Assembly (NCBI GenBank): GCA_965229245.1
Contig: CBDDIW010000001.1
Location: 650,372-714,371 of the forward strand
Source: Verrucomicrobiales bacterium
Lineage (GTDB): Bacteria; Verrucomicrobiota; Verrucomicrobiia; Verrucomicrobiales; V1-33
Length of the DNA stretch: 64,000 nucleotides
Direction: 5' to 3'
Below the pieces are notes generated by a model. That model was not told the origin of the DNA. It did no database searches and saw nothing but the letters and a program-made list of their open reading frames with translations. Positions 6,315 to 26,656 of this stretch are shown here, one piece after another. A program made the translations under genes and the position numbers. Numbering within the stretch: the first letter of the stretch is position 1; each line of letters starts with the position of its first letter.

Positions 6315-7283
6315 ATGAAATTTACTGCTCCTCCCGGTCCATGTCAACTCACGGTTAGCCCTGGCGGATTCCCCCGCCGCGGATTTCTCACCGGGCTCGC
6401 GACCGTGGCCGCGGGGCTCCGGTTCTCCCGGGCGGCGGCCCCGGCCATGGATCCCGCGGACTGGGTGTTCATCGATAACGGCGAGGTCCGCCTGGGCGTG
6501 AAGCAGTCCAGCGGCGCGGGCATCGGGTGGCTCTCGGCGTCCGGGGCCGGGGAAAATCTGCTGGATCACTTCGACCACGGGCGCTTCATCCAGCAGAGTT
6601 ACTACGGGCACACGGACGGTTCCGTGTGGGTGGACAAGCCATGGCGCTGGAATCCCGTGCAGGGCGGCGATTACAAAGGGAACGCTTCCCAGCTTCTGGA
6701 AATCACCAGCGACAAAACCACGCTCCACTCCCGCGTCCACCCGCGGAACTGGGCAGGAGGCCAATTGCTGACGGACTGCGAAATGGAACAGCACATCCGC
6801 CTGGAGGGCAAGGTGGCGATCGTGAAATTCCGGTTCCGTTATAACGGGAAAGGATCGCACCCGGAGATTCATCACGAGGTGCCCGCCACGTTCCTGAATC
6901 CCGCCCTGGGCACGCTGGTCATCTATGAAGGCGACAAGCCGTGGACGAACGGAGAGCTGAAGCGCTCCACACCCGGCTGGCCTAACGAAAGCCGCAGGAT
7001 CCCGGAATCCTGGGCCGCGTATGTGAATGACAAGGACACGGGGGTGGGCGTCTTCGTGCCCATCGCGAAGGAACTCACCTGTTACCGCTACGGAGCGAAC
7101 CCCAAAGCACCCGCCGCGTGCTCCTACTTCGCGCCCCTGGTGAAATTCGCCATCACGCCGGGGGTGGATTTCAGCTATGAAGCGGTGCTTGCGACCGGCA
7201 CGCCCGCGGAGATGCGTGCCACCTTCGCAAAGCTCAAGGATTCCCTCACCGGCAAGCTCCCGGAGACTCCCGCCGCGAAATAA
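6315..7283 (+). CDS. Tat-secreted hypothetical protein
   Basis: Twin-arginine signal (RRGFLTGLATVAAGL) followed by a soluble domain with no motif I recognise. Confidence 0.55.
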   Translation: MKFTAPPGPCQLTVSPGGFPRRGFLTGLATVAAGLRFSRAAAPAMDPADWVFIDNGEVRLGVKQSSGAGIGWLSASGAGENLLDHFDHGRFIQQSYYGHTDGSVWVDKPWRWNPVQGGDYKGNASQLLEITSDKTTLHSRVHPRNWAGGQLLTDCEMEQHIRLEGKVAIVKFRFRYNGKGSHPEIHHEVPATFLNPALGTLVIYEGDKPWTNGELKRSTPGWPNESRRIPESWAAYVNDKDTGVGVFVPIAKELTCYRYGANPKAPAACSYFAPLVKFAITPGVDFSYEAVLATGTPAEMRATFAKLKDSLTGKLPETPAAK

Positions 7284-7299
7284 CCCCGCCCCCCATGGC

Positions 7300-8016
7300 A
7301 TGACCGTCACGCTTTTCATTCCCTGTTTTATCGATGCCCTCTACCCCCAGGCGGGGATCAGTATGGTGACCATTCTCGAAGAGCTGGGGCATACCGTGGA
7401 TTTCCCCGGGGAACTGGCCTGCTGCGGGCAGCCGCCGTTCAATTCCGGCTACTGGGACGAAGCCCGGGAGGTCGCGCGCCCGGCACTGCGGCGGCTGGAA
7501 AAGGCGGAGGCCGTGGTGATCGGCAGCGGATCCTGCGGGGCGATGCTGAAGGTGTTTTACAAGGAACTCTTCGCCGGGCAGCCGGAGGAGGCCCAGGCAA
7601 AGGCGCTGTCCGCGAAGACCTGGGAGTTCTCGGATTTCCTCGTCACCCGTCTGGGCGTCACGGACTTGGGGGCCACCTTCGAGCGCCGGGTGACGTTCCA
7701 CGATGGCTGCCACGGCCTGCGGGAACTGAAGACGAAATCCCAGCCCCGCGCGTTGCTGAAGCACGTGCGCGGTCTGGAGCTCGTGGAGATGGCGGAGGCC
7801 GAGACCTGTTGCGGCTTCGGCGGCACCTTTGCCACGAAGTATGCCGGCATCTCCACCGCCATGGGCGAGGTGAAATGCGCCAGCGCCGCGGAGACGGGCG
7901 CGGATGTCATCGTGAGCAACGACTCCAGTTGCCTCATGCACCTCCAGGGCTTGCTGGACCGCCAGGGCCGCCCCATCCGGACAATGCACCTGGCGGAAGT
8001 GCTGGCCCAGCGATAA
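7300..8016 (+). CDS. lutA: lactate utilization protein A (LutA, CCG-domain Fe-S oxidoreductase)
   Basis: Two cysteine-rich CCG motifs (ACCGQPPFNSG and CCGFGGTFATKY). Start ATG 7300, internal to the listed 7177..8016 ORF. Followed by lutB and lutC. Confidence 0.8.
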   Translation: MTVTLFIPCFIDALYPQAGISMVTILEELGHTVDFPGELACCGQPPFNSGYWDEAREVARPALRRLEKAEAVVIGSGSCGAMLKVFYKELFAGQPEEAQAKALSAKTWEFSDFLVTRLGVTDLGATFERRVTFHDGCHGLRELKTKSQPRALLKHVRGLELVEMAEAETCCGFGGTFATKYAGISTAMGEVKCASAAETGADVIVSNDSSCLMHLQGLLDRQGRPIRTMHLAEVLAQR

Positions 8017-8025
8017 GCTCCCAGG

Positions 8026-8295
8026 ATGAAAACCCCGCCGGAAACAAACGCTTTCCCCGTCACTCCCGAAGAATGGCGCGCGCGTGCCGAAGCCATGCTG
8101 GAGCCGGAACAGTTTTACTGGTTGTTTCTTTCCATGGACGAACGGGCCGCCGCCATGGATGACGTCTTCCGGGACTATCAACTCATGGGCGGCTCGCTGG
8201 ATCCGGATCCCGATCCGCAGAGCCCCTTCTGGAGCCGGGAGGAACTGGAGGAGTTTGCCCGGAGTCATGGAACCACGATCCGGAATCCCTCATGA
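8026..8295 (+). CDS. small hypothetical protein (89 aa)
   Basis: ORF closely linked between lutA and the next gene, with a 4-bp overlap downstream. No recognisable motif. Confidence 0.35.
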   Translation: MKTPPETNAFPVTPEEWRARAEAMLEPEQFYWLFLSMDERAAAMDDVFRDYQLMGGSLDPDPDPQSPFWSREELEEFARSHGTTIRNPS

Positions 8296-9053
8296 TCGGT
8301 CTCCCTTCAACCATTCTCGCCGTCATCACCACTTTTGCGCACAGCGGCGTGCGCTGCCTGCTCATGGGCGGACAGGCCTGTTGGGTATACGGCTCCGGCC
8401 AGGCAAGCAAAGACGTGGACTTTGCCATCATGGCGGATAGCGGAAATTTGGAGCAATTGCGCGTGGTCCTCGCGGACCTGGCGGCCCAAAACATTGCCGT
8501 TCCCGCCCTGGATCAGCAATTTCTGGATGCCGGACTCGCCGTGCATTTTCGCTGCTCCCGAAAAGACGCCGCGGGTATCCGGGTGGATGTCATGTCGAAA
8601 ATGCGGGGCGTGGATTACTTCGACGCCCTGTGGGAGCGCCGGGCGGTCGCTATCGTGGGAGACGGAGTGGAACTCAACCTCCTTTCCTTGCGTGATCTTA
8701 TCCGTGCAAAGAAAACCCAGCGGGATAAAGACTGGCCTATGATCAGCACACTCGTTTCCGGGCATTACCTGAGAAACGGCCACGATCCCTCGCCCGCAAA
8801 TATCGCTCTTTGGCTGGAGGAGCTTCGTGATCCGGAACTGCTTCTGGAAGCAGTGACCCGCTACCCGGCCGAAGCCGCAAAGGTAGCCTCTTTGCGCGGA
8901 CCGGTGACTATCGCCCGCGACCCCTCCTCTTCCATGGATGACATCCGCCGGGCCATCCGGGACGAAGAGGACGCCGAACGCGCGGCGGACCGGGCCTATT
9001 GGGAACCATTGAAAAAACAACTCGCGGAACTCCGCCGGCAAAAGTATGACTGA
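8292..9053 (+). CDS. hypothetical protein, possibly a Pol-beta-type nucleotidyltransferase fold
   Basis: 253 aa. LMGGQACWVYGSGQASKDVDFAI resembles the hG[GS]...DxD nucleotidyltransferase motif, with a third acidic residue in RVDVM. Overlaps lutB start by 8 bp. Confidence 0.45.
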   Translation: MIGLPSTILAVITTFAHSGVRCLLMGGQACWVYGSGQASKDVDFAIMADSGNLEQLRVVLADLAAQNIAVPALDQQFLDAGLAVHFRCSRKDAAGIRVDVMSKMRGVDYFDALWERRAVAIVGDGVELNLLSLRDLIRAKKTQRDKDWPMISTLVSGHYLRNGHDPSPANIALWLEELRDPELLLEAVTRYPAEAAKVASLRGPVTIARDPSSSMDDIRRAIRDEEDAERAADRAYWEPLKKQLAELRRQKYD

Positions 9054-10479
9054 CACCAAACCCGCCCACCAGTTTCACACGGACGCGGACCAGGTCTCCG
9101 CGGACCTCATTCACCGGCGGCGCATCCAGGGAGCCATGGGGAAATACCTGGCCGCGCGCGGGCCGCGCCAGGCGGCTTTCCGCGACTGGCAGGAGGCCCG
9201 GCAGACGGCGGCGGAGACGAAGTGGGCCGCACTCAATGAGCTGGACAAACACCTTCTGGAGTTTGAAAAACAGGCCACCGCGCGCGGCACCCAAGTGCAC
9301 TGGTGCGGCACCGGGGAAAAGGCGCGGGAGGTCATCGTGGACATCATCCGGAGGCACAAAGCCCAGCGCATTGTGAAGTCCAAGGTGATGACCTCCGAGG
9401 AGATCCATCTCAACAAGCTCCTGGAAAAGCTGGGCTTCAGCGTGGTGGAAAGCGACCTCGGGGAATACATCCAGCAGCTCAAAGGCGAGCCTCCCTATCA
9501 CTTCGTCTTCCCCTGCATGCACCTCAGCCGGGAGGAGATCAGCGACCTCTTTGAAAACAAACTCGGCACCGCGCAAACGCACGATCCCGAGGAGCTCACC
9601 ATGATCGCCCGGAAGGTGCTGCGGCAGAAGTATCTGGAGGCGGATATCGGGTTCACCGGCGCGAATTTCATCGTGGCCGAGACCGGCATGATCTCCATCA
9701 CGGAAAACGAGGGGAACGCCCGGCTCTCCGCCGCCCTGCCGCGAGTGATGATCACCCTCGTGGGCATCGAGAAAATGGTGCCACGCCTCGCGGATCTGGC
9801 GCTCTTTCTCCCCATGCTGGCCACGGCGGGCACGGGGCAGCCGCTCACGTGTTATAATACAGTGTATGGCGGGCCCCGCCAGCCCGGCGAGGTGGACGGC
9901 CCGCTGGAGTGGCACGTCATCCTCCTGGATAACAACCGCACCACCCTCCTCGCGGACCCGGAGCAGCGGGACGCGCTGCACTGCATCCGCTGCGGGGCGT
10001 GTCTGAATGTGTGCCCGGTCTTCAAGAACATCGGCGGCCTGAGCTACGGCACCACTTACCAGGGGCCCATCGGCAGCGTCATCACGCCACACTTGCGCGG
10101 GCTCCAGGACTGGAAGCACCTGTCAGGAGCCTCCTCCCTCTGCGGCGCGTGCACGGAGACGTGCCCGGTGAAGATAGACCTGCATCACCACCTGCTCCAG
10201 AGCCGCCGGAACGCGGTGCGGCAAAAGCGCGGGCGCACGGAGGGCCTGATGTGGCGGGGATTCAGCTTCCTGATGAAGCGCCCGCAGCTTTACCGGGCCG
10301 GGCTGAAGGCGGGCCGGCTGTTCCAGCCGCTGCACGCACTCGTGAAGGGAGGCGCGCTTGATCCCGCGCGCGCATGGACGAAGTCCCGGGAGCTCCCGGA
10401 GGTCGCGCCGCGTTCGTTTCGCGACTGGTGGAGCCACCGCCCTCCCAAAACCCCATCCCCCCCCACCGGCCACTCATGA
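9046..10479 (+). CDS. lutB: lactate utilization protein B (LutB, LUD domain plus 4Fe-4S ferredoxin)
   Basis: 477 aa. 4Fe-4S motifs CIRCGACLNVCPV and CGACTETCPV, with an N-terminal DUF162/LUD region. Confidence 0.85.
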   Translation: MTDTKPAHQFHTDADQVSADLIHRRRIQGAMGKYLAARGPRQAAFRDWQEARQTAAETKWAALNELDKHLLEFEKQATARGTQVHWCGTGEKAREVIVDIIRRHKAQRIVKSKVMTSEEIHLNKLLEKLGFSVVESDLGEYIQQLKGEPPYHFVFPCMHLSREEISDLFENKLGTAQTHDPEELTMIARKVLRQKYLEADIGFTGANFIVAETGMISITENEGNARLSAALPRVMITLVGIEKMVPRLADLALFLPMLATAGTGQPLTCYNTVYGGPRQPGEVDGPLEWHVILLDNNRTTLLADPEQRDALHCIRCGACLNVCPVFKNIGGLSYGTTYQGPIGSVITPHLRGLQDWKHLSGASSLCGACTETCPVKIDLHHHLLQSRRNAVRQKRGRTEGLMWRGFSFLMKRPQLYRAGLKAGRLFQPLHALVKGGALDPARAWTKSRELPEVAPRSFRDWWSHRPPKTPSPPTGHS

Positions 10480-14643: not shown

Positions 14644-15015
14644 GAGGAACACCATTACAGGGGCGGGGGCAGGGCGAATGCAAGGGGAAGGTGACCAGGA
14701 GAAAAGCAGGCCCGGTCCGGGGAGCCGGTTGTTGACCGCTCCGTTCAGAGTCAGCTCAGCCCCCGCCGTCACGCCGGTCCACCGGGGCGATGAGCCCATA
14801 CCCGGAAATGGAGTTCCAAAGGCCCGAGCCGGATATAGCCAGAAACGGAGTCTTCTAGTTTCACTTACGGAGCCAGAGAGGGAAGTGTATAATTCCTCAT
14901 GATTTCAATAAACAGCTATGCCCCCGTGTTCACGGAAACCTTTCTTAATTATTTCCCTGGCATTTGATGGTCTCAAATTTAAATAAATTTGAAATAACAG
15001 AAGAAGCAGAATCAA

Positions 15016-15948
15016 ATGGCCCATATCACCTTCATTCATGGCATCTCCAATAAACCGGCGGCGGACCGGTTGTTGCGCATCTGGCTGGATTCCCTTACCG
15101 GGGGGACCGGCGGAATCGATCTGGACGCGGAAGGCGTCACCACTTCCATGATTTATTGGGCGGATGTTCTTTATCCGGAACCGGTCGCCGCGGAAGCCGA
15201 GTTCGTAAATGAAGCGAACACCGCGGAACTGCCCTCCGCCACCGATCCGAATATGAAATGGCGAGAGCATCTTTCCGGGGAGGAAAAAGCCATCACCGAC
15301 GCCCTGGCTGCCAAATTGAGCTTCGATGTGCTTACCGAGGACACCTATGTGCCACCGGTGACCGCGATGGATGCCCAGCTTGAACGAATTCCCCTCCCCT
15401 GGTTTGTAAAACGCCGGGTCATGAAGGAATTCCTTCGTGATGTCCATCACTACCTCTTTAACGAAACCTCCTCACCCCGGCCCGGAGTTTCCTATAAGGT
15501 AAGAGATGAAATCAGAAGTCGAACCATCGCCGCCCTCCAGGCAGGCTCCTCGAAACCGGGCCCGCACCTTCTCGTAAGCCACAGCATGGGGACAGTCATC
15601 GCCTACGATTGTCTCAAGCGGGTTCCGGAATGCCCGGCGGTGGATGGCCTGATGACTGTCGGAAGTCCTCTCGGGATTGATGAAATCCAGGACAAACTCA
15701 AGCCTGAATGGTCTCGCGCCAACGGCTTTCCCTCAAAAGTAAAAGGGGGATGGATCAATATTTATGACAGCCTCGACCCGGTCACGGGTTTTGACGGAAA
15801 CATTGCCAATGACTTCAAGAAAGACGGCCGTGAGGAAGTGGAGGTAATCAATGAACAGAACTACGGCGCCTGGCGGCATGATATCGTCAAGTACCTGGCG
15901 GGCACAAAGCTCCGGGCAAGCCTGGGACGTTTGCTTTCCGGCCTCTAA
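15016..15948 (+). CDS. alpha/beta-hydrolase fold protein, lipase/esterase-like (gene A of candidate three-gene system)
   Basis: 310 aa. ITFIHGI oxyanion-hole-like motif and LVSHSMGT nucleophile elbow (GxSxG). Candidate acid (IYDSLDP) and His (AWRHD) residues. GC is markedly lower than the flanks. Confidence 0.7.
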   Translation: MAHITFIHGISNKPAADRLLRIWLDSLTGGTGGIDLDAEGVTTSMIYWADVLYPEPVAAEAEFVNEANTAELPSATDPNMKWREHLSGEEKAITDALAAKLSFDVLTEDTYVPPVTAMDAQLERIPLPWFVKRRVMKEFLRDVHHYLFNETSSPRPGVSYKVRDEIRSRTIAALQAGSSKPGPHLLVSHSMGTVIAYDCLKRVPECPAVDGLMTVGSPLGIDEIQDKLKPEWSRANGFPSKVKGGWINIYDSLDPVTGFDGNIANDFKKDGREEVEVINEQNYGAWRHDIVKYLAGTKLRASLGRLLSGL

Positions 15949-15962
15949 CCCCCCCTCGACCC

Positions 15963-17612
15963 ATGGCGTGGAATTCGATTACCTTCAATCAGGAGCTGTC
16001 CTCTGCCGCCGGCACTTTTAATTTGGCCGCCGTCTCAGAGTTGTGCGGACAGTTAATCAAACACCTTAACGAAACAGGAGATCCTTATCCTTCAGATGAT
16101 GCCTCGGCGGCAATGTCAATCCTGCGCCGGAAAAGGTATTTCAGTCTCATGATGAAAGTAGGCGCGGCTTTTATGATGACGGGCCGCGCCTCCCTGAAAG
16201 TAATTCGTTTGTTTGCTCAGGCGCAGATCGATGACGGGGATGTCGCCGCCGGGTTGATCACTCTACATGATCTGGCCGCCAAGGCGGAGCTACTCGGGCA
16301 TCAAGGCGAATTGAACGAAGCCCGGGGCTTGATCGGCCGGGCGCATAAGCAGTATTATGTAACCACCGAAGGAAACGCCCCTCACCGGCTGGAACACTTG
16401 AAAAAGTCTCTGAAAGCCTATTTGGAGGTTTATAGCACGTTGCCGGAGAAATGCCTGTGGCACGGGATCAACAGCGTGGCTCTGCTCAGGCGGGCTGAGC
16501 GCGAATCCGTGGACTGTCCTGTTTTCGTGGATCCCGAAACCATCGCGAAACAGATTTTTTCCGTGATTTCCCACTTGAGAGAACCGGTGGAAGTGTGGGA
16601 TTGCGCCACCGCCATGGAAGCCAGCCTGGCTTTGGGGGATCTGAAAAATGCGGGGGCCTGGCTTGAACGGTATGTGGCTCATCCTGACGGGGACGCGTTT
16701 GAACTTGCCAGCACTCTGCGTCAGTTGGAAGAGGTCTGGCAACTGGACTCCGCGCAGGGAGCCGGGCAGTTACTGTTACCGGTTCTCCGGGCTCACCTTC
16801 TCGCGAAGGAGGGTGGAGCGGTGGATATGTCTCTTTCCGAAATGAGGAAATCCGCCGCGGTCTCCCCGCCCCAGGCGTCTGACTTTGAAAAGGTCTTTGG
16901 AACTGACTCCTATAAGGCGCTTGAATGGTTTCGCAAAGGATTGCGGCGGGCCAGGCTTGTGGGCCGCATCGGCAGAACCTCCACCGAGGGACACGGCACG
17001 GGTTTTGTCCTTCTGGGGAAGACGCTCTCTCCAGTGTGGGGCGAAAGTTCAATCCTTCTTACCAACAGCCATGTGGTTTCCGATAATCCGGAGATCTGCA
17101 AACAGGGGGCGCTCCACCCCTCGGAGGTAGTCGTCACCTTTGAGGCCCTTGGAAACGGGGAGGAATATACGGTGGACCTGCTTTGGACCTCCCCTCCCGA
17201 CAAACTGGACGCCACGGTTCTGCTCCTTAAGGATACCTCGAAGCTCGCCCCCCTTTTGACGGATGATCACGCGAAAATAGCGACCGGCCTGCCGCTACTC
17301 AATGATTACGCCCGTGTATATATTATCGGGCATCCCCAGGGAGGAGGCTTGAGTTATTCCCTCCAGGACAATCTGCTGCTGGATCACGAAGATCCTCTGC
17401 TCCACTACCGGGCACCCACGGACCACGGGAGTTCAGGCAGTCCGGTATTCAACGCCAACTGGGATTTCATCGGGCTCCACCATAAGGGCAGCGAGACCAT
17501 GCGGAGATTAAATAAAAAACCGGGCACCTACCCGGCGAACGAAGCCATCTGGCTTCAGGCTGTCATTTCTGAATTGAAAACCCATCCGCCGGCACCCCCG
17601 GCCTCCACTTGA
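15963..17612 (+). CDS. trypsin-like (chymotrypsin-fold) serine peptidase with an about 330-aa N-terminal alpha-helical (TPR-like) domain (gene B)
   Basis: 549 aa. The C-terminal about 200 aa carry His (LLTNSHVV), Asp (DKLDATVLLL) and Ser (DHGSSGSPVF) in canonical order and spacing. The N-terminal region is predicted helical with no recognised motif. Starts 14 bp after gene A. Confidence 0.75.
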   Translation: MAWNSITFNQELSSAAGTFNLAAVSELCGQLIKHLNETGDPYPSDDASAAMSILRRKRYFSLMMKVGAAFMMTGRASLKVIRLFAQAQIDDGDVAAGLITLHDLAAKAELLGHQGELNEARGLIGRAHKQYYVTTEGNAPHRLEHLKKSLKAYLEVYSTLPEKCLWHGINSVALLRRAERESVDCPVFVDPETIAKQIFSVISHLREPVEVWDCATAMEASLALGDLKNAGAWLERYVAHPDGDAFELASTLRQLEEVWQLDSAQGAGQLLLPVLRAHLLAKEGGAVDMSLSEMRKSAAVSPPQASDFEKVFGTDSYKALEWFRKGLRRARLVGRIGRTSTEGHGTGFVLLGKTLSPVWGESSILLTNSHVVSDNPEICKQGALHPSEVVVTFEALGNGEEYTVDLLWTSPPDKLDATVLLLKDTSKLAPLLTDDHAKIATGLPLLNDYARVYIIGHPQGGGLSYSLQDNLLLDHEDPLLHYRAPTDHGSSGSPVFNANWDFIGLHHKGSETMRRLNKKPGTYPANEAIWLQAVISELKTHPPAPPAST

Positions 17613-17618
17613 TTTCCT

Positions 17619-18998
17619 ATGCAACCTCTTGAGATCGCACCGGCCCCTCCCGCTACTCCGGCTCCCGTTAATGTCACTTATCCGCTGAAGATCTTTCTCA
17701 GCCACAAACTGGGCCCATCCAAAGCGAAAGCGGAGCGGATCGCCGCGGCTCTGTCGCTTTTTGCCGGGGATAAACTCAGGATCACTTGCTCAGCCACGTT
17801 TGCCAAGGGCATTGACTGGGAGGAGACTATAAAGAGGGAATTGAAAGCCGCCCATTGGTTTATTCTGATCTATGACGGACCTGACGTGAACCACGACTGG
17901 TGCCTTTTTGAGGCGGGCTTTTTCCTTGCCAACGATCCCGGCAGGAAATTGATCTGCCTTCATGATCCAAGACACAGTCTGCCTCCTCCTTTGAGACAAT
18001 TTGTGGACGTGCCCGCCCGTGCCGAAGAGGTCATGAGCCTGTTCCAGGAAATTTATTTCAATCCTCCATGGGCGATCAAACCGGAACTGCTGCTGGCAAA
18101 TGGCCCTCTTCCCGATTATGTCAACCGCATCGTAAAGGAGATCAATGGCCAGGATATTCTTTCTCAATTCACCCTCTCCCCCACCTTTACTTTCCAAATA
18201 AGGAACGAAAACATTTCCCTGCTGAGTGAAGGCATTATCGACGACAACGCCGAGATCAGTGGAGACGGTGCCTGGGAAGCCATATTTGGAAAACCGGATG
18301 CCACCATCTCGTGGACATGGAAAGGCATCACCGACGGATTAGATGACTGGCAGGCATGGGCATACCAGCTCGCGGGCATGATGGCCGAGGCGATCACCAC
18401 AATATCCGTGAACAACCCCTCGACAGCATTGCGCGTACGCCTTAAAAACGGACAGGAATCTATTTACAGAGTCCTGATCCGGCGCATGGAGAGAACAACG
18501 GAAGCATACCGGTTCACCTTCGGAGCCGCTGAGATTGTGACCTCATACCGTCCGGGGGACGCGGCAAGCCGGACGAAAATATTTCATCTTTATAACCTCG
18601 CATGGTTTTTCAAAGAAAATTTCCTGAAGACTCATCTCGCCGCGCTTGAAGAGCAGGTTCTCATGAAGGCTCTTCCTCCGGACTTTCTCCCCAAAAGGAT
18701 CAAAAATATCCGGGATGACCTTAAAGCCCTGCACGCTGAAGCCCAGGTTCGGGGCATAGAAGACAATGCCCGGGTGGTCAATGCTTTCCGACCGGAGTTG
18801 AGGGCTCCGGTGGCAGCCGCGTTGCAGGAAACCTGGCCCTTGCTCGACCAGGCTTTGCAGGAGGCCTGCTCCGCGGCAAAGCCGTCGCTGACCGCCCTGA
18901 TCAAGGCACTGAGGGAGATGAAGCCCATCAACACTTTTTTTCTGAAGAGTTGCCTTGAAGAATTGCAGGTTCTCGAAGAACTCCCTGGCGCGGGGTGA
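17619..18998 (+). CDS. TIR-domain protein with an about 280-aa C-terminal domain of unknown function (gene C)
   Basis: 459 aa. Residues about 20-180 have the KIFLSHK beta-A motif and a W-C-L-F-E-A-G motif matching the conserved (S)xWCxxE of TIR domains, which contains the catalytic Glu. Starts 6 bp after gene B. Confidence 0.7.
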   Translation: MQPLEIAPAPPATPAPVNVTYPLKIFLSHKLGPSKAKAERIAAALSLFAGDKLRITCSATFAKGIDWEETIKRELKAAHWFILIYDGPDVNHDWCLFEAGFFLANDPGRKLICLHDPRHSLPPPLRQFVDVPARAEEVMSLFQEIYFNPPWAIKPELLLANGPLPDYVNRIVKEINGQDILSQFTLSPTFTFQIRNENISLLSEGIIDDNAEISGDGAWEAIFGKPDATISWTWKGITDGLDDWQAWAYQLAGMMAEAITTISVNNPSTALRVRLKNGQESIYRVLIRRMERTTEAYRFTFGAAEIVTSYRPGDAASRTKIFHLYNLAWFFKENFLKTHLAALEEQVLMKALPPDFLPKRIKNIRDDLKALHAEAQVRGIEDNARVVNAFRPELRAPVAAALQETWPLLDQALQEACSAAKPSLTALIKALREMKPINTFFLKSCLEELQVLEELPGAG

Positions 18999-20516: not shown

Positions 20517-21044
20517 ATGTTCCTTCGTTTTGTCCCCGTTATCGCCTGCGCGGTCGCATTCTCCGGCTGCAAACGCCACACGGTCATAGATCCCGCCGAT
20601 CTGCAAACCCCCGCAGCGGAAGCCGCGCTGCGCTACGTCATCGACCACAGCCCCCGGAGGAAAGACGCAAAGCTGGCAATTATCTGCATCGGGGATGCTC
20701 CTATGAGTCCTGCCACCGAAGAATTTGAGGCACGGTTCAAAGACATTCCCGGTCTGGAGTTTATCAACTTTCTGAGGATGGAACATGGCATGTATAATGG
20801 AAAACCCCGACGCTGGGACTTCCAGACAAAGAAATTCGTGCTGGAGGTTCAGATCAGTGCCCTCACGCCTTTTAAGGACGGACGGGCGGAGGCCATCGCG
20901 GCATGGGCGTATGAGGATGACGCGGAGCGCTACCGGCTGAGGATTCTGGAAAAAGCGGGCGGCGGCTATGACGTGAAAGAACTGGAGACCATTCCTGTTT
21001 CCAATCGCAACGACGACCGGAGCAGTGTCACGAAGGGCAAGTGA
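20517..21044 (+). CDS. hypothetical lipoprotein
   Basis: Signal peptide with lipobox AFSGC, 175 aa. Confidence 0.5.
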   Translation: MFLRFVPVIACAVAFSGCKRHTVIDPADLQTPAAEAALRYVIDHSPRRKDAKLAIICIGDAPMSPATEEFEARFKDIPGLEFINFLRMEHGMYNGKPRRWDFQTKKFVLEVQISALTPFKDGRAEAIAAWAYEDDAERYRLRILEKAGGGYDVKELETIPVSNRNDDRSSVTKGK

Positions 21045-22269: not shown

Positions 22270-22444
22270 CCTGGCCGTCCCGGAAAACGACATCGCATCG
22301 GCACGCACTACAGAAACCGGTTAGCCGGACACCAGTGATTTCAAACCGCCGCCACGGGAGTTCCCACGTTTGCGGGTCTTTCGCGCGCTTTAGGCGGCAC
22401 GGTGTGCCGGTCTCTTGTCTCACCCCCATTTCACAAATCCCCCC

Positions 22445-25400
22445 ATGATTCTGAAGCTCCTCCCCGCCATTGTCCTGCTGCCCTCGTTTCTTCACGCCCG
22501 CCCGTTTGAGAATATGTCGAGTGACGGCAAAACCCCGGATGGCTGGGAGGGAAACCCCGCGTGCTGGCGGGTGGCGGATGGCATCCTCACCGGGGAGATC
22601 AAGGAGGGCACCACCCTGGACCGCAATGAATGGTTCTTCATGAACCAGGAGACGGGGGACTTTGAATTGACCGTGGAATACCGCATCACCGGCGGCCCCA
22701 CCGCCAACAGCGGCATCCAGATCCGCAGCCGGCGGGATGCCAAAGGCCAGGCCAGCGGGCTCCAGTGTGATCTGGACGATGGCAAGGAATGGCTGGGCCG
22801 CATCTATGATGAGCACGGGCGCGCGCTGGTGATGGAGCGGGGCACGCGCGTGTCCATCGCCCCGGACGGCCGCCGCTGGGCAGATCCCTTCGCGGACCCG
22901 AAGTCCTTCACAAAAATCGCGAAGAAGGATGACTGGAACACCTATCGCATCAAGGCCACCGGCTCCCACGTGCAGGTCTGGATCAACGGTGTCTTCTTTG
23001 GCGCGCTGGATGACCACGAGTCGAAGGCGGCGGAATACAGCGGGAAAATCGCCTTCCAGCTCCACGCCGGGGCGGGTCCGGCGAAGGTGGAATTCCGGAA
23101 CTTCAATCTTCTGGACAAAGGAAAGACCGACCCGCCCGCGGGAGCCAAAACCGTGGCCGAAGACAAACCGGACGACGTTTTCCACCCCTCCAGCGCGGAC
23201 GGCAAGCCGCTGAATCTCGGCTTTGAAAAAGGGAATCTGGATGGCTGGACCGCGGAGGGTGATGCCTGGGAGAGCCAGCCCATCAAGGGCGACACCGTGT
23301 CCCCCCGGAAGCCGGGGCAGGCCAGCCGCCACGCGGGGCAATACTGGATCGGCGGCTACGAGCCGAAACTGACGGATGCCGGCACGGGCAAGCTGACCTC
23401 CGTCCCTTTCGAGGTGACGCATCCCTGGGCCAGCTTTCTCGTGGGGGGCGGTGGCGAGGTGGCCTCCGTGCGGGTGGAGATCGTGGACGCGGAGACGGGG
23501 AAAATCTTCCACACCGCCGCTGGGCGCTTTGAGGAGGACATGCACCGGGAGGTGGTGGATATGCGGCCCATGAAGGGGAAGAAGGTTTTCCTCCGCCTCA
23601 TCGACCGCGCGAAAGGCGGCTGGGATCACCTGAACTTTGACGACTTCGCCTTCCACAACGAACCACCGGCGAAGGCCGTGGCGGAGGGCAGCCGCCAGAC
23701 GCAGAGCCCCGTGCTCTGGCACCTCCAGCCGAATCCCGCGAAGCCCACCGCCATTCAAAATCCGGAGGCGCAAAAGACCGTGGCCACCATGATGCTCACC
23801 AGCGGCTTCCAGGCGGAACTCATCGCCGCCGAGCCGGAGGTGCGCCAGCCCATCGCTTTCACCATCGACGAAAAAGGACGCCTCTGGATTCTGGAGGGCT
23901 ACAGCTATCCTAACAAACAACCGGAGGGCCAAGGGAAGGACCGGATCATCGTGCTCTCGGACCAGGATGGGGACGGGGTGTTCGAGACCCGCCGGGTCTT
24001 CGCGGAGGGGATCAATCTGGGGAGCGGCATCGAGGTGGGGTTCGGCGGGGTCTTCGTGGGCGCGGCCCCGGAGCTGCTGTTCTTCCCCGCCAGCACCCGG
24101 GACGACCAGGTGGCCGCCGGGCCGCCGAAGGTGCTCCTGGACGGCTGGGGCTATCAGGACACGCACGAGACCCTGAACAGCTTTTCCTGGGGGCCGGACG
24201 GCTGGCTCTACGGCTGCCATGGCGTCTTCACCACCTCCTATGTGGGCAAGCCGGGAACCGCGAAGGAAGGGCGCGTGCCGCTGCACGCGGGCGTGTGGCG
24301 CTACCACCCGGTGAAGGGGGAATTCGAAGTCTTCGCCCACGGCGGGAGCAATCAATGGGGGCTGGACTACAATGAAGCCGGCGACCTTTTCATGACCCAC
24401 TGCCGGAGCTTTTTCGGCGGCGGCGGCACCACCTATGTCATCCGCAACGGGCACTACTGGAACCAGGCGAACGCTGGCTACGCGCCGTTCATTTCCAACA
24501 GCGGCCCGGACTTCGCCCCGGACCTGAAGAACTACCTGCCCGCCGCCGCGCTCTATGACAGCGGCGAGGGTGGCGCGGGAAAACCCGGCACCACGGCCAT
24601 CTATGGCGGGCACTCCCACGTGGGCACCATGATTTACCAGGGCACGAACTGGCCGGAGATCTACCGGGGCCACCTTTTCACGCACAATCTCCACGGGCAC
24701 CAGATGAACCACCAGGAGAACGTGCGGTCCGGCTCCGGCTATGAGACCATGCACGCCGGGGCGGATCTCCTCCACGCGCCGGACCCCCGCTACATGGCGG
24801 TGGACCTCCAGAGCGGCCCGGACGGAGCGGTCTATACCATCGACTGGTTTGACCAGCAGCACTGCCACACACCCATCGAGGAAAAGTGGGACCGGAGCAA
24901 CGGGCGGGTGTATCGCGTCTCATGGGCGGCCACCTACAAACCGGTGAAAGTGGATCTCTCGGGGGAAAGTGATGAAGCCCTCGCGAAGCTCCAGAATCAC
25001 GCGGACGAATGGTACCGCCGTAACGCCCGCCGCCTGCTCATGGAGCGCGCGGCCACGCGTCCCCTGGATGAGCGGGCTGTCCCGGTACTCCGTGACCTGG
25101 CGGGTAACGCCGGGATGGAGCCATCCTTGCGCGGCCTGTGGACCCTCGCGCAGTGCAATCTTCTGACAAAGCGGGAGATCACGCTCGCGGCCCGCAATGA
25201 CAACGCCCCCACCCGCGCCTGGGCCGTGAGGCTGGCCACGGAAAAGGGAGCGAAGGATCTGCTGGATCCCGCGATCCTCCTGAAGCTGGCGAAGGAGGAT
25301 CCCGCGCCCGCCGTGCGCCTGGCCCTCGCCTCCGGCCTGCCCTCCCTGCCAAATGACCAATGCTGGGAAATCGTGACCGCGCTCGCCGCCCACGTCGAAG

Positions 25401-26656
25401 ACGATAAAGACCGTTTCCTGCCGAAGCTCATCTGGACCGGATTCGCCCCCGTGGCGAAAACCGACTGGCCGCGCGCCCTCGCCCTGGCCGCCACCACCCC
25501 GCTGCACGAGCTGGCGGACAGCATCCGCTGGTATGCCGCGCAGGACGCCGCCGGGCGTGAAGCCCTGGCCTCCGCCGCCGCCGGACAATCCGCCATCAAA
25601 GCCGGCCGCGCGGTGAGGATCGCCGCCTTTGCCCTGCGGGACGAGGCCACGCTCACTCCTCCCGCCTCCGCGGAGGCCGCCATGAAAGCCCTGGGCGAAA
25701 ACCCGGAACCCGCCGTGCTGGCCGCCGCGAATGAGCTGGCCGCCACCTTTGGCGACAAGGACGTGCTGGGCCGCATGCGCGCGGTGCTCGCGGATGCGAA
25801 CGCGCCGCTGGGAGAAAGGAAGTCCGCCTTTGCCCTGCTGAAGCGCACCGGGGATAAAGAGGCCCTGGGGGTTTTTGCCACCCTGCTGGATAACGCGGCT
25901 TTCCGCTCCGCCGTCATCCCGCTCCTGGGCCGGAGCGACGACCCCGCGGTGGCCACCGCCCTGCTGGAACGGTATGCGAACCTCTCCGTGAATGACCGCA
26001 ACGCGGCGCTCGCCGCCCTGACCAGCCGCGCCCCGTTGGCGCTCACGCTGGTGAAGGCCATGGCCGCGGGCACCTTTGACAAGAAGCAGCTCACGGCGGT
26101 GCACATCCGCCAGATGCGGAATCTCGGCAGCGCGGAGCTGAACACCCTGCTCGAAAAGACCTGGGGGAAATTCAATCCGTCCTCCGAAGCCTCCAAAGCC
26201 ACGATCGCCAAATTCAAGAAGCTTTACAACGAGGCCCCGCTCTGGGCCTACGATGCCGGGAAGGGCCGCGAGGTCTTCACCCGCGTGTGCGGCGCGTGCC
26301 ATGCCTATGGCCAGGGCGAGGCCCGCGTTGGGCCCAACTTGGGAGGCACCTGGCGCAATGGCGTGGACTACTTCCTAGAGAACATCGCGGACCCGAACGC
26401 GGTCATTGGCGATGACTTCCAGCTCACCATCATCACGAAAAAGGATGACACCGTGTATGCGGGGATCGTGGAAAAAGAGACGGACACCGCGGTGGTGCTG
26501 CGGACACTCACGGAATCTGTTAGTATCCCGAAAGCGGATAATAATATCAAATCCCGTGAGAAACTGCAACAAAGCCTCATGCCGCCGGGCCTTTTGGAGT
26601 CCATGTCGGAGCGGGAAGCCCTTGAGTTGTTGAAGTTCCTGTCCACACAGCAGTAA
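22445..26656 (+). CDS. large exported fusion protein: DUF1080 (3-keto-disaccharide hydrolase-like) domain, then PVC-type membrane-bound-dehydrogenase beta-propeller with HEAT repeats, then C-terminal CxxCH cytochrome c domain
   Basis: 1403 aa from ATG 22445 (signal peptide MILKLLPAIVLLPSFLHA). DUF1080 block (WRVADGILTG, IAFQLHAG), long helical repeat region, heme motif VCGACHAYG and C-terminal LMPPGLLESMSEREALELLKFL, typical of the Planctomycetes/Verrucomicrobia heme-binding dehydrogenase family. Confidence 0.8.
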   Translation: MILKLLPAIVLLPSFLHARPFENMSSDGKTPDGWEGNPACWRVADGILTGEIKEGTTLDRNEWFFMNQETGDFELTVEYRITGGPTANSGIQIRSRRDAKGQASGLQCDLDDGKEWLGRIYDEHGRALVMERGTRVSIAPDGRRWADPFADPKSFTKIAKKDDWNTYRIKATGSHVQVWINGVFFGALDDHESKAAEYSGKIAFQLHAGAGPAKVEFRNFNLLDKGKTDPPAGAKTVAEDKPDDVFHPSSADGKPLNLGFEKGNLDGWTAEGDAWESQPIKGDTVSPRKPGQASRHAGQYWIGGYEPKLTDAGTGKLTSVPFEVTHPWASFLVGGGGEVASVRVEIVDAETGKIFHTAAGRFEEDMHREVVDMRPMKGKKVFLRLIDRAKGGWDHLNFDDFAFHNEPPAKAVAEGSRQTQSPVLWHLQPNPAKPTAIQNPEAQKTVATMMLTSGFQAELIAAEPEVRQPIAFTIDEKGRLWILEGYSYPNKQPEGQGKDRIIVLSDQDGDGVFETRRVFAEGINLGSGIEVGFGGVFVGAAPELLFFPASTRDDQVAAGPPKVLLDGWGYQDTHETLNSFSWGPDGWLYGCHGVFTTSYVGKPGTAKEGRVPLHAGVWRYHPVKGEFEVFAHGGSNQWGLDYNEAGDLFMTHCRSFFGGGGTTYVIRNGHYWNQANAGYAPFISNSGPDFAPDLKNYLPAAALYDSGEGGAGKPGTTAIYGGHSHVGTMIYQGTNWPEIYRGHLFTHNLHGHQMNHQENVRSGSGYETMHAGADLLHAPDPRYMAVDLQSGPDGAVYTIDWFDQQHCHTPIEEKWDRSNGRVYRVSWAATYKPVKVDLSGESDEALAKLQNHADEWYRRNARRLLMERAATRPLDERAVPVLRDLAGNAGMEPSLRGLWTLAQCNLLTKREITLAARNDNAPTRAWAVRLATEKGAKDLLDPAILLKLAKEDPAPAVRLALASGLPSLPNDQCWEIVTALAAHVEDDKDRFLPKLIWTGFAPVAKTDWPRALALAATTPLHELADSIRWYAAQDAAGREALASAAAGQSAIKAGRAVRIAAFALRDEATLTPPASAEAAMKALGENPEPAVLAAANELAATFGDKDVLGRMRAVLADANAPLGERKSAFALLKRTGDKEALGVFATLLDNAAFRSAVIPLLGRSDDPAVATALLERYANLSVNDRNAALAALTSRAPLALTLVKAMAAGTFDKKQLTAVHIRQMRNLGSAELNTLLEKTWGKFNPSSEASKATIAKFKKLYNEAPLWAYDAGKGREVFTRVCGACHAYGQGEARVGPNLGGTWRNGVDYFLENIADPNAVIGDDFQLTIITKKDDTVYAGIVEKETDTAVVLRTLTESVSIPKADNNIKSREKLQQSLMPPGLLESMSEREALELLKFLSTQQ

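Follow-up and report, generated by a model that had tools for sequence, protein, structure and literature searches.

In the window analysed here, a stretch of 64,000 nucleotides from a Verrucomicrobiales bacterium, we identified an open reading frame (ORF) for an alpha/beta-fold serine hydrolase of 310 amino acids (aa), followed by a gene encoding a TPR-S/trypsin-like protease. The hydrolase is likely an effector of a conflict system that acts in partnership with this protease. A more specific reading, which we rate as narrowly probable, would make it the effector half of a mobile two-gene cassette of the anti-phage type, in which a latent pro-enzyme is activated when it is cut by the partner protease. 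A preliminary description, made from the letters alone, had already proposed an effector at this position; the effector role stands as the best reading, in a defence-type island, but the decisive partner had been missed, this being the adjacent TPR-S/trypsin protease and not the TIR-domain protein encoded further downstream. The features of the gene pair, all located on the + strand, are as follows:

15016..15948, + strand: gene with ATG start; its product is the alpha/beta-fold serine hydrolase of 310 aa, proposed to be a latent (zymogen) effector
15037-15042, + strand: oxyanion residues H8-G9 of the hydrolase
15175..15381, + strand: variable acidic insert of the hydrolase (residues 54-122), located after strand beta4 and before the remaining core, the proposed inhibitory segment bearing the cleavage sites
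15583-15585, + strand: nucleophile S190 of the hydrolase
15766-15777, + strand: acid D251/D254 of the hydrolase
15877-15879, + strand: H288 of the hydrolase
15963..17612, + strand: gene for a 549-aa protease with the Pfam domains TPR-S (PF20308, residues 79-175) and Trypsin_2 (PF13365, residues 345-505) and the triad H370/D416/S491, the proposed sensor-protease

Linkage of the hydrolase gene to a TPR-S/trypsin protease

A search of 5.8 billion proteins (E ≤ 1e-3) resulted in 2,011 homologs of the hydrolase, the best 120 of which were 56-70% identical over 95-100% of the length, so that the ORF at 15016-15948 is a genuine gene and did not merely arise by chance in GC-rich DNA. These best 120 homologs belonged to Acidobacteriota, Bacteroidota, Deltaproteobacteria, and other groups, and were almost always annotated as hypothetical proteins. 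A genome scan with one genome per species (about 185,000 species genomes) revealed 166 matches, a patchy distribution that also extends to plasmids. The best 80 loci were examined; they were found in at least seven phyla, namely Verrucomicrobiota, Acidobacteriota, Bacteroidota, Pseudomonadota, Actinomycetota, Planctomycetota, and Gemmatimonadota, and 78 of them had enough downstream sequence to be evaluated. In 75 of these 78 loci (96%), an ortholog of the TPR-S/trypsin protein was encoded directly downstream of the hydrolase on the same strand, with matches to both the N-terminal and the C-terminal half of the window protein. Pairwise distances of the hydrolases correlated with those of the proteases (r = 0.77), and the protease triad H370, D416, and S491 was conserved among the orthologs. 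The solved proteases nearest by sequence to the Trypsin_2 domain were SplA and SplB, both highly specific, with a narrow range of targets, and comparison of the partner protease with PADLOC gave weak matches only (RT-Protease_XI, PDC-S45, and LmuA). A pairing of a TPR-S/trypsin protein with a hydrolase was not described in the literature that we searched. In a Blastocatellia genome (L007/L004, 5711-9830), the cassette was followed by genes for two more TPR-S proteins, one combining MAP3K_TRAF_bd with TPR-S and the other TPR-S with a patatin phospholipase, pointing to arrays in which the TPR-S proteins carry different effector heads.

The linkage also bears on an alternative in which the hydrolase is an esterase of ordinary housekeeping or metabolic function whose neighbouring genes have nothing to do with it. 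Generic sub-threshold matches to Abhydrolase families and the nature of the flanking genes (purQ, purM, an OmpA-like gene, and mutY) would fit such an enzyme, which we nevertheless regard as hardly credible, given its association with a single protease family in 96% of the evaluable loci from different phyla, the patchy distribution including plasmids, a composition atypical for the host, and fusions with conflict-system domains.

Fold, catalytic residues, and substrate class of the hydrolase

The N-terminus of the hydrolase reads MAHITFIHGISNK, with ITFIHGISNK at residues 4-13, and LLVSHSMGTVIAYD was located at residues 185-198; the motifs FIHGI and VSHSMGT, on which the preliminary description had relied, are present in this ORF exactly as described there. 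In an alignment of 42 family members, H8-G9, H189-S190-x-G192, D251, D254, and H288 were invariant (an alignment of 190 homologs was examined as well), and H8, G9, S190, D251, D254, and H288 did not vary among 12 sequences covering all branches of the superfamily. The AlphaFold2 model of the protein (predicted local distance difference test, pLDDT, 80; predicted template modelling score, pTM, 0.78) placed S190, in the elbow S-H-S190-M-G, between strand 184-189 and helix 191-202, D251/D254 directly after strand 246-250, and H288 between strand 275-279 and helix 290-294. The order Ser, Asp, His and the positions after beta5, beta7, and beta8 correspond to the canonical placement in alpha/beta hydrolases. 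Since the catalytic residues are invariant in the family alignment and across every branch of the superfamily, the window protein is, as judged from sequence and model, an intact alpha/beta-fold Ser-Asp-His hydrolase, and the lipase-like alpha/beta hydrolase proposed at the outset gains support from the invariant motif residues and their canonical positions in the model. Its overall fold resembles solved alpha/beta hydrolases, with 9jyx, 1i6w, 1auo, 4zxf, and 4x90 as structural neighbours.

The assignment to a named family turned out differently. The two motifs had been taken as a signature of DUF676/PGAP1/LCAT-like enzymes, but the window protein revealed no match to PF05057 (DUF676), PF07819 (PGAP1), or PF02450 (LCAT) at E ≤ 0.1, and the 42 relatives had no strong matches: PGAP1 was matched in five of them (best E 2.6e-3), LCAT in two (best E 7e-4), and DUF676 in none. 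None of the hydrolase homologs carried PGAP1 or LCAT in its precomputed Pfam annotation. Membership in these families was consequently rejected, only generic matches below threshold being left, namely to Abhydrolase_6 (19 bits versus a cutoff of 26.3) and Hydrolase_4. A sequence search of the PDB gave nothing meaningful (best E 1.1), and no match for the window hydrolase was obtained in NCBIfam or in the phage collection searched.

With regard to its activity, the hydrolase is probably an esterase or lipase; that its substrate is a lipid is a tentative proposal, to which we give clearly less than even weight, and the phospholipase activity suggested in the preliminary description is plausible. 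The activated enzyme might also be a peptidase, a thioesterase, or another acyl-hydrolase whose target is soluble, for instance within a proteolytic cascade. This we consider unlikely, though it would be compatible with activation by the partner protease.

Acidic insert and proposed activation mechanism

Across 190 homologs, residues 1-53 and 123-310 of the hydrolase were well conserved and residues 54-122 poorly so, with a length of 67-91 aa. In the AlphaFold2 model, pLDDT fell below 50 at residues 60-75 and 104-109, and a moderately confident helix was predicted at residues 88-101. The net charge of this insert was -10 in the window hydrolase, -13 on average in the family, and negative in all 190 homologs; values of -11 to -17 were obtained for an actinobacterial branch and -14 for a caspase-linked protein (both described below). 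The C-terminal core is neutral to basic, with a mean net charge of +1.5 and +4 in the window hydrolase. The sequence of the insert thus drifts, whereas its composition stays constant.

Protease-controlled hydrolases have been described in other bacteria. Kaur et al. (2020, PMC7159879) noted that an alpha/beta-hydrolase is invariably encoded beside the caspase-like peptidases of conflict systems, and LcCaspase of Lysobacter capsici cuts LcHydrolase at R73 and R117, after which the 8.1-kDa N-terminal and 19.8-kDa C-terminal fragments jointly kill E. coli and the 4.7-kDa middle is dispensable (Evans et al. 2025, PMC12642450). Metallo-beta-lactamase (MBL) nucleases encoded upstream of trypsin-like protease-sensor fusions carry disordered insertions that mask the active site, and cutting activates them (Tuck et al. 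2025, PMC12799240).

In the mechanism that we propose for the window pair, the hydrolase would be made as an inactive pro-enzyme, kept off by the acidic, loosely structured insert of about 70 residues (54-122). This segment would separate an N-terminal beta-alpha-beta piece (about 6-7.5 kDa, with H8-G9) from a C-terminal catalytic piece (about 21-22 kDa, with S190, D251/D254, and H288). The TPR-S module of the partner might sense an infection or stress cue, whereupon its S1B-type protease domain would cut site-specifically inside the insert, most likely in the low-confidence loops at about residues 57-80 and 104-121. Cutting would release or re-arrange the insert and turn on the esterase, probably a lipase or phospholipase, which in turn would kill or arrest the cell. 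We infer from the comparative data that the protease cuts the hydrolase, that the uncut form is latent, and that the cut form is toxic, and the same applies to the trigger and to the substrate. The cleavage sites being themselves predicted, cuts in both floppy loops were computed to give pieces of about 6-7.5 kDa and 21-22 kDa, and a variable acidic insert of low pLDDT is consistent with a removable middle segment between fragments of about 8 kDa and 20 kDa.

Fusions and other branches of the superfamily

An exhaustive profile search (E ≤ 1e-3) resulted in 3,032 clusters at 50% identity, and its top matches included a number of natural fusions. The hydrolase was fused to TPR-S and Trypsin_2 in three separate clusters (P0132, P0139, and P0148) and to TPR-S, Trypsin_2, and Metallophos in a fourth (P0138), which corresponds to a single ORF of 1,376 aa in a planctomycetotal genome (L062, 8001-12131) with a calcineurin-like metallophosphoesterase part. 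Further fusions joined Trypsin_2 to the hydrolase (P0161), additionally contained the nuclease Endonuclease_NS (P0175 and P0195), or linked the hydrolase directly to Metallophos (P0133) or to a TIR domain (P0135, locus L058). At another locus, a separate Metallophos gene was observed after the cassette (L024, 10611-11876).

In a more distant actinobacterial branch, the genes after that of the hydrolase encoded EAD1- or EAD5-Trypsin_2 proteins and STAND NTPases. On the Agrobacterium plasmid pTiAF1_95, a 290-aa homolog was encoded after a 587-aa caspase-family protein (Peptidase_C14). This caspase-linked homolog was 28% identical in tblastn over query residues 3-294 (94% of the query) and reached a probability of 98.2% in hhalign (E 3e-14). 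The caspase and hydrolase genes of pTiAF1_95 (L094, 4238-6870) and a hydrolase and serine protease pair on plasmid pAtl-11c (L095, 6001-8523) occupied the same backbone slot of these two conjugative plasmids, flanked by a gene with a ParB N-terminal domain and by one of about 5.1 kb that encodes a DEAD/DEAH helicase, and this slot looks like an exchange hot spot. Based on the linkage, the fusions, the EAD-trypsin/STAND and caspase branches, and the shared plasmid slot, the superfamily is a protease-coupled module that recombines with different protease classes and sensors.

Partnership without cleavage has to be weighed at this point. The hydrolase and the protease could be independent co-effectors of the TPR-S sensor, or the hydrolase could regulate the protease, with control by binding or complex formation. 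Fusions and strict adjacency are compatible with physical partnerships of any kind, members of the superfamily also occur fused to or beside Metallophos, Endonuclease_NS, and TIR, and the TIR-hydrolase fusion exists without a protease. Nevertheless, we consider this quite unlikely, because cleavage activates the caspase-linked hydrolase of the same type of gene pair (PMC12642450), because a conserved, compositionally constrained, low-confidence insert would have no obvious role, and because an upstream effector with a downstream protease is the arrangement of proven zymogen pairs (PMC12799240). Activation by proteolysis is our preferred reading.

Several observations weigh against this preferred reading. 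The protease was absent at three loci, one being that of the TIR-hydrolase fusion (L058) and the others L075 and L082. PADLOC-DB 2.0 contained no match for the window hydrolase or for 12 diverse superfamily members, and the defence role is deduced from context. In a P0271-like subfamily, the insert was shorter and non-acidic or uncharged. A conserved cleavage motif was sought in the insert alignment and no callable site was found; semi-conserved positions were E at column 64 (V in the window protein), DPDMSW, E90, and L97/K100. The R-G motif of LcHydrolase was also absent from the insert, as is to be expected since the partner protease belongs to a different class. The segment LERIPLPW at the C-terminal edge of the insert was conserved even in the caspase-linked branch, so that it probably has a structural role and does not serve as a cut site. 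Finally, the substrate of LcHydrolase itself is unknown (PMC12642450), and its homology to the window hydrolase was inferred through another caspase-linked homolog.

A joint reading of all these elements goes further still and is, in our opinion, rather unlikely as a whole. According to it, the pair would be an unrecognised, self-contained, and widespread defence system, interchangeable with caspase and hydrolase pairs, in which a variable polyanionic pro-segment holds a near-neutral to basic, lipid-directed esterase inactive until the S1B-type protease removes it. TIR neighbours and fusions (14-26 of the 80 loci, and P0135) would then represent a dual-effector design of NAD+ depletion plus membrane lysis, or else extra protease substrates.

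Genomic island and TIR gene

Two further features of the window were assigned to the surroundings of the gene pair:

14800..15015, + strand: AT-rich intergenic region of 216 bp (GC 0.41), recognised by composition; presumed promoter region and left edge of the low-GC island
17619..18998, + strand: gene for a 459-aa TIR-domain protein (weak TIR_2 match) with a TIR fold at about residues 23-146, a WCLFE motif containing E98, a beta-rich middle domain, and a C-terminal helical bundle

The hydrolase, TPR-S/trypsin, and TIR genes are co-directional, with gaps of 14 and 6 nucleotides. Their GC content at third codon positions (GC3) was 0.62-0.64, compared with 0.81-0.86 for the flanking purM, purQ, OmpA-like, and mutY genes. 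Since GC3 lies below that of the flanks and a stretch with a GC content of 0.41 is located upstream, the three genes form a horizontally acquired island of about 4.2 kb, and the defence operon of the preliminary description holds in the form of a horizontally acquired, defence-type island of three genes. A sigma-70 consensus scan of 14800..15015 revealed no convincing promoter on the + strand, where the promoter type of the host may fall outside the consensus; the counts of a promoter and terminator scan did not exceed those of shuffled sequence, and no repeats flanking the island were detected in a repeat search.

The window TIR protein had no homolog in any of the 80 hydrolase loci and just 10 relatives among the 5.8 billion proteins. 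Relatives located in genomes (L086, L087, and L088) were encoded elsewhere without the cassette, either beside ThsB_TIR and a caspase (Peptidase_C14) or near patatin and SLATT genes. The window protein thus belongs to a very small family, and its beta-rich middle domain and its helical bundle at the C-terminus are uncharacterised. In 26 of the 80 loci, other, unrelated TIR-like ORFs lay no more than 8 kb from the cassette, 14 of them being strong. Thus, the TIR gene is an accessory of the same island and not a core component of the cassette, possibly serving as a second effector. Because unrelated TIR genes occur near these 26 loci and a TIR-hydrolase fusion exists, yet no TIR ortholog is conserved, TIR is a recurrent but non-obligatory companion of the cassette, as expected in defence islands.

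The first description had also proposed that the hydrolase degrades a nucleotide signal produced by the TIR protein and thereby tunes the TIR pathway. A TIR gene with a WCxxE motif and the same composition does follow the cassette after 6 nucleotides, and the nearby TIR-like ORFs and the TIR-hydrolase fusion would also speak for a functional connection. We regard this proposal as highly improbable and abandoned it, since the window TIR protein has no homolog near other cassettes, its own relatives lack the cassette, and two thirds or more of the cassettes have no TIR gene nearby, the universal partner being the protease. Moreover, the bonds hydrolysed by Ser-Asp-His alpha/beta hydrolases are those of esters, amides, and thioesters; such enzymes are not known to attack pyrophosphate or glycosidic bonds, as present in the known products of TIR proteins, which likewise counts against it.

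Other genes of the window

Apart from the island, some further genes were recorded. Two overlapping ORFs without a Pfam match (8026-8295 and 8292-9053, both + strand; 89 and 253 aa) are located between lutA (7177-8016) and lutB (9046-10479) of a lactate-utilisation operon, where they may represent an insertion of two genes, for instance a toxin-antitoxin pair. At 20517-21044 (+ strand), an ORF of 175 aa has a lipoprotein-like N-terminus and lacks a Pfam match; it may be foreign DNA too, because its GC3 of 0.665 is well below that of the neighbouring OmpA-like and mutY genes (0.83-0.86). At 22415-26656 (+ strand), a 1,413-aa protein with 3-keto-disaccharide hydrolase, DUF7133, and HEAT-repeat regions is encoded, an architecture which we take to be typical of Verrucomicrobiota and Planctomycetota. 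The closest homolog of the window hydrolase, from a metagenome-assembled genome of the Verrucomicrobiae (L006), agrees with this architecture.

Comparison with known systems

It was not until late 2025 that the licensing of toxic effectors by proteolysis became established as a common principle in bacterial immunity, and the alpha/beta-hydrolases are the least understood of the effectors licensed in this way, because their substrate is unknown. The window provides a clean and compact example of a large unstudied branch with a trypsin-like partner and a TPR-S sensor. Experimental handles are given by the catalytic residues, the delimited acidic pro-segment, the natural fusions, and the plasmid slot in which caspase-type and trypsin-type cassettes are swapped; these render experiments on activation and substrate easy to set up and would allow testing whether the zymogen mechanism generalises across protease classes.

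Compared to minimal lipases, lysophospholipases, and a phospholipase-type DDHD domain, represented by the structural neighbours 9jyx, 1i6w, 1auo, 4zxf, and 4x90, the window hydrolase displays an identity of just 11-17% and reaches no Pfam family. It further differs in its large acidic insert between beta4 and alphaB, the usual lid position being after beta6, and in its link to a protease, which is absent in these enzymes. With Thoeris-like TIR systems, the window island shares a TIR protein with a catalytic-Glu motif, but it lacks a ThsA-type or other signal-binding effector domain, and its TIR gene is not conserved together with the cassette.

The MBL pairs (HamM with protease-HamA and VcMBL with Avs2; PMC12799240, PMC12642450) have the effector upstream and the protease-sensor downstream, as in the window. 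In these pairs, the activity of the effector is unmasked when its disordered insertions are cut, and the module recombines with many sensors. In contrast to the window pair with its Ser-Asp-His alpha/beta hydrolase, the effector is a metallo-beta-lactamase DNase; its cleavage sites follow isoleucine, and the sensors belong to known defence systems (Hachiman, AVAST, Lamassu, and DRT).

The closest parallel is given by LcHydrolase and LcCaspase, where a hydrolase of about 300 aa is likewise encoded beside a sensor-linked protease. LcHydrolase is divided into an N-terminal fragment, a middle segment that can be dispensed with, and a catalytic C-terminal fragment of about 20 kDa, and a similar layout is predicted for the window protein from its insert. 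The pairing of a caspase-family gene with a homolog of the window hydrolase, observed on Agrobacterium plasmids, served as a proxy, and the catalytic residues are common to all branches. Differences were found in the protease, which is a caspase-like cysteine protease in LcCaspase and an S1B trypsin-like serine protease in the window, in the sensor (beta-transducin repeats or STAND versus TPR-S), in the gene order, which is reversed with the hydrolase first, and in the R-G cleavage motif, which the window hydrolase does not have. While Actinobacteria and Pseudomonadota are reported for the caspase-linked systems (PMC12642450), the window branch is common in Bacteroidota, Acidobacteriota, and Verrucomicrobiota. 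Altogether, the window hydrolase differs from established protease-licensed alpha/beta-hydrolase effectors in its trypsin-like protease, its TPR-S sensor, and its reverse gene order.
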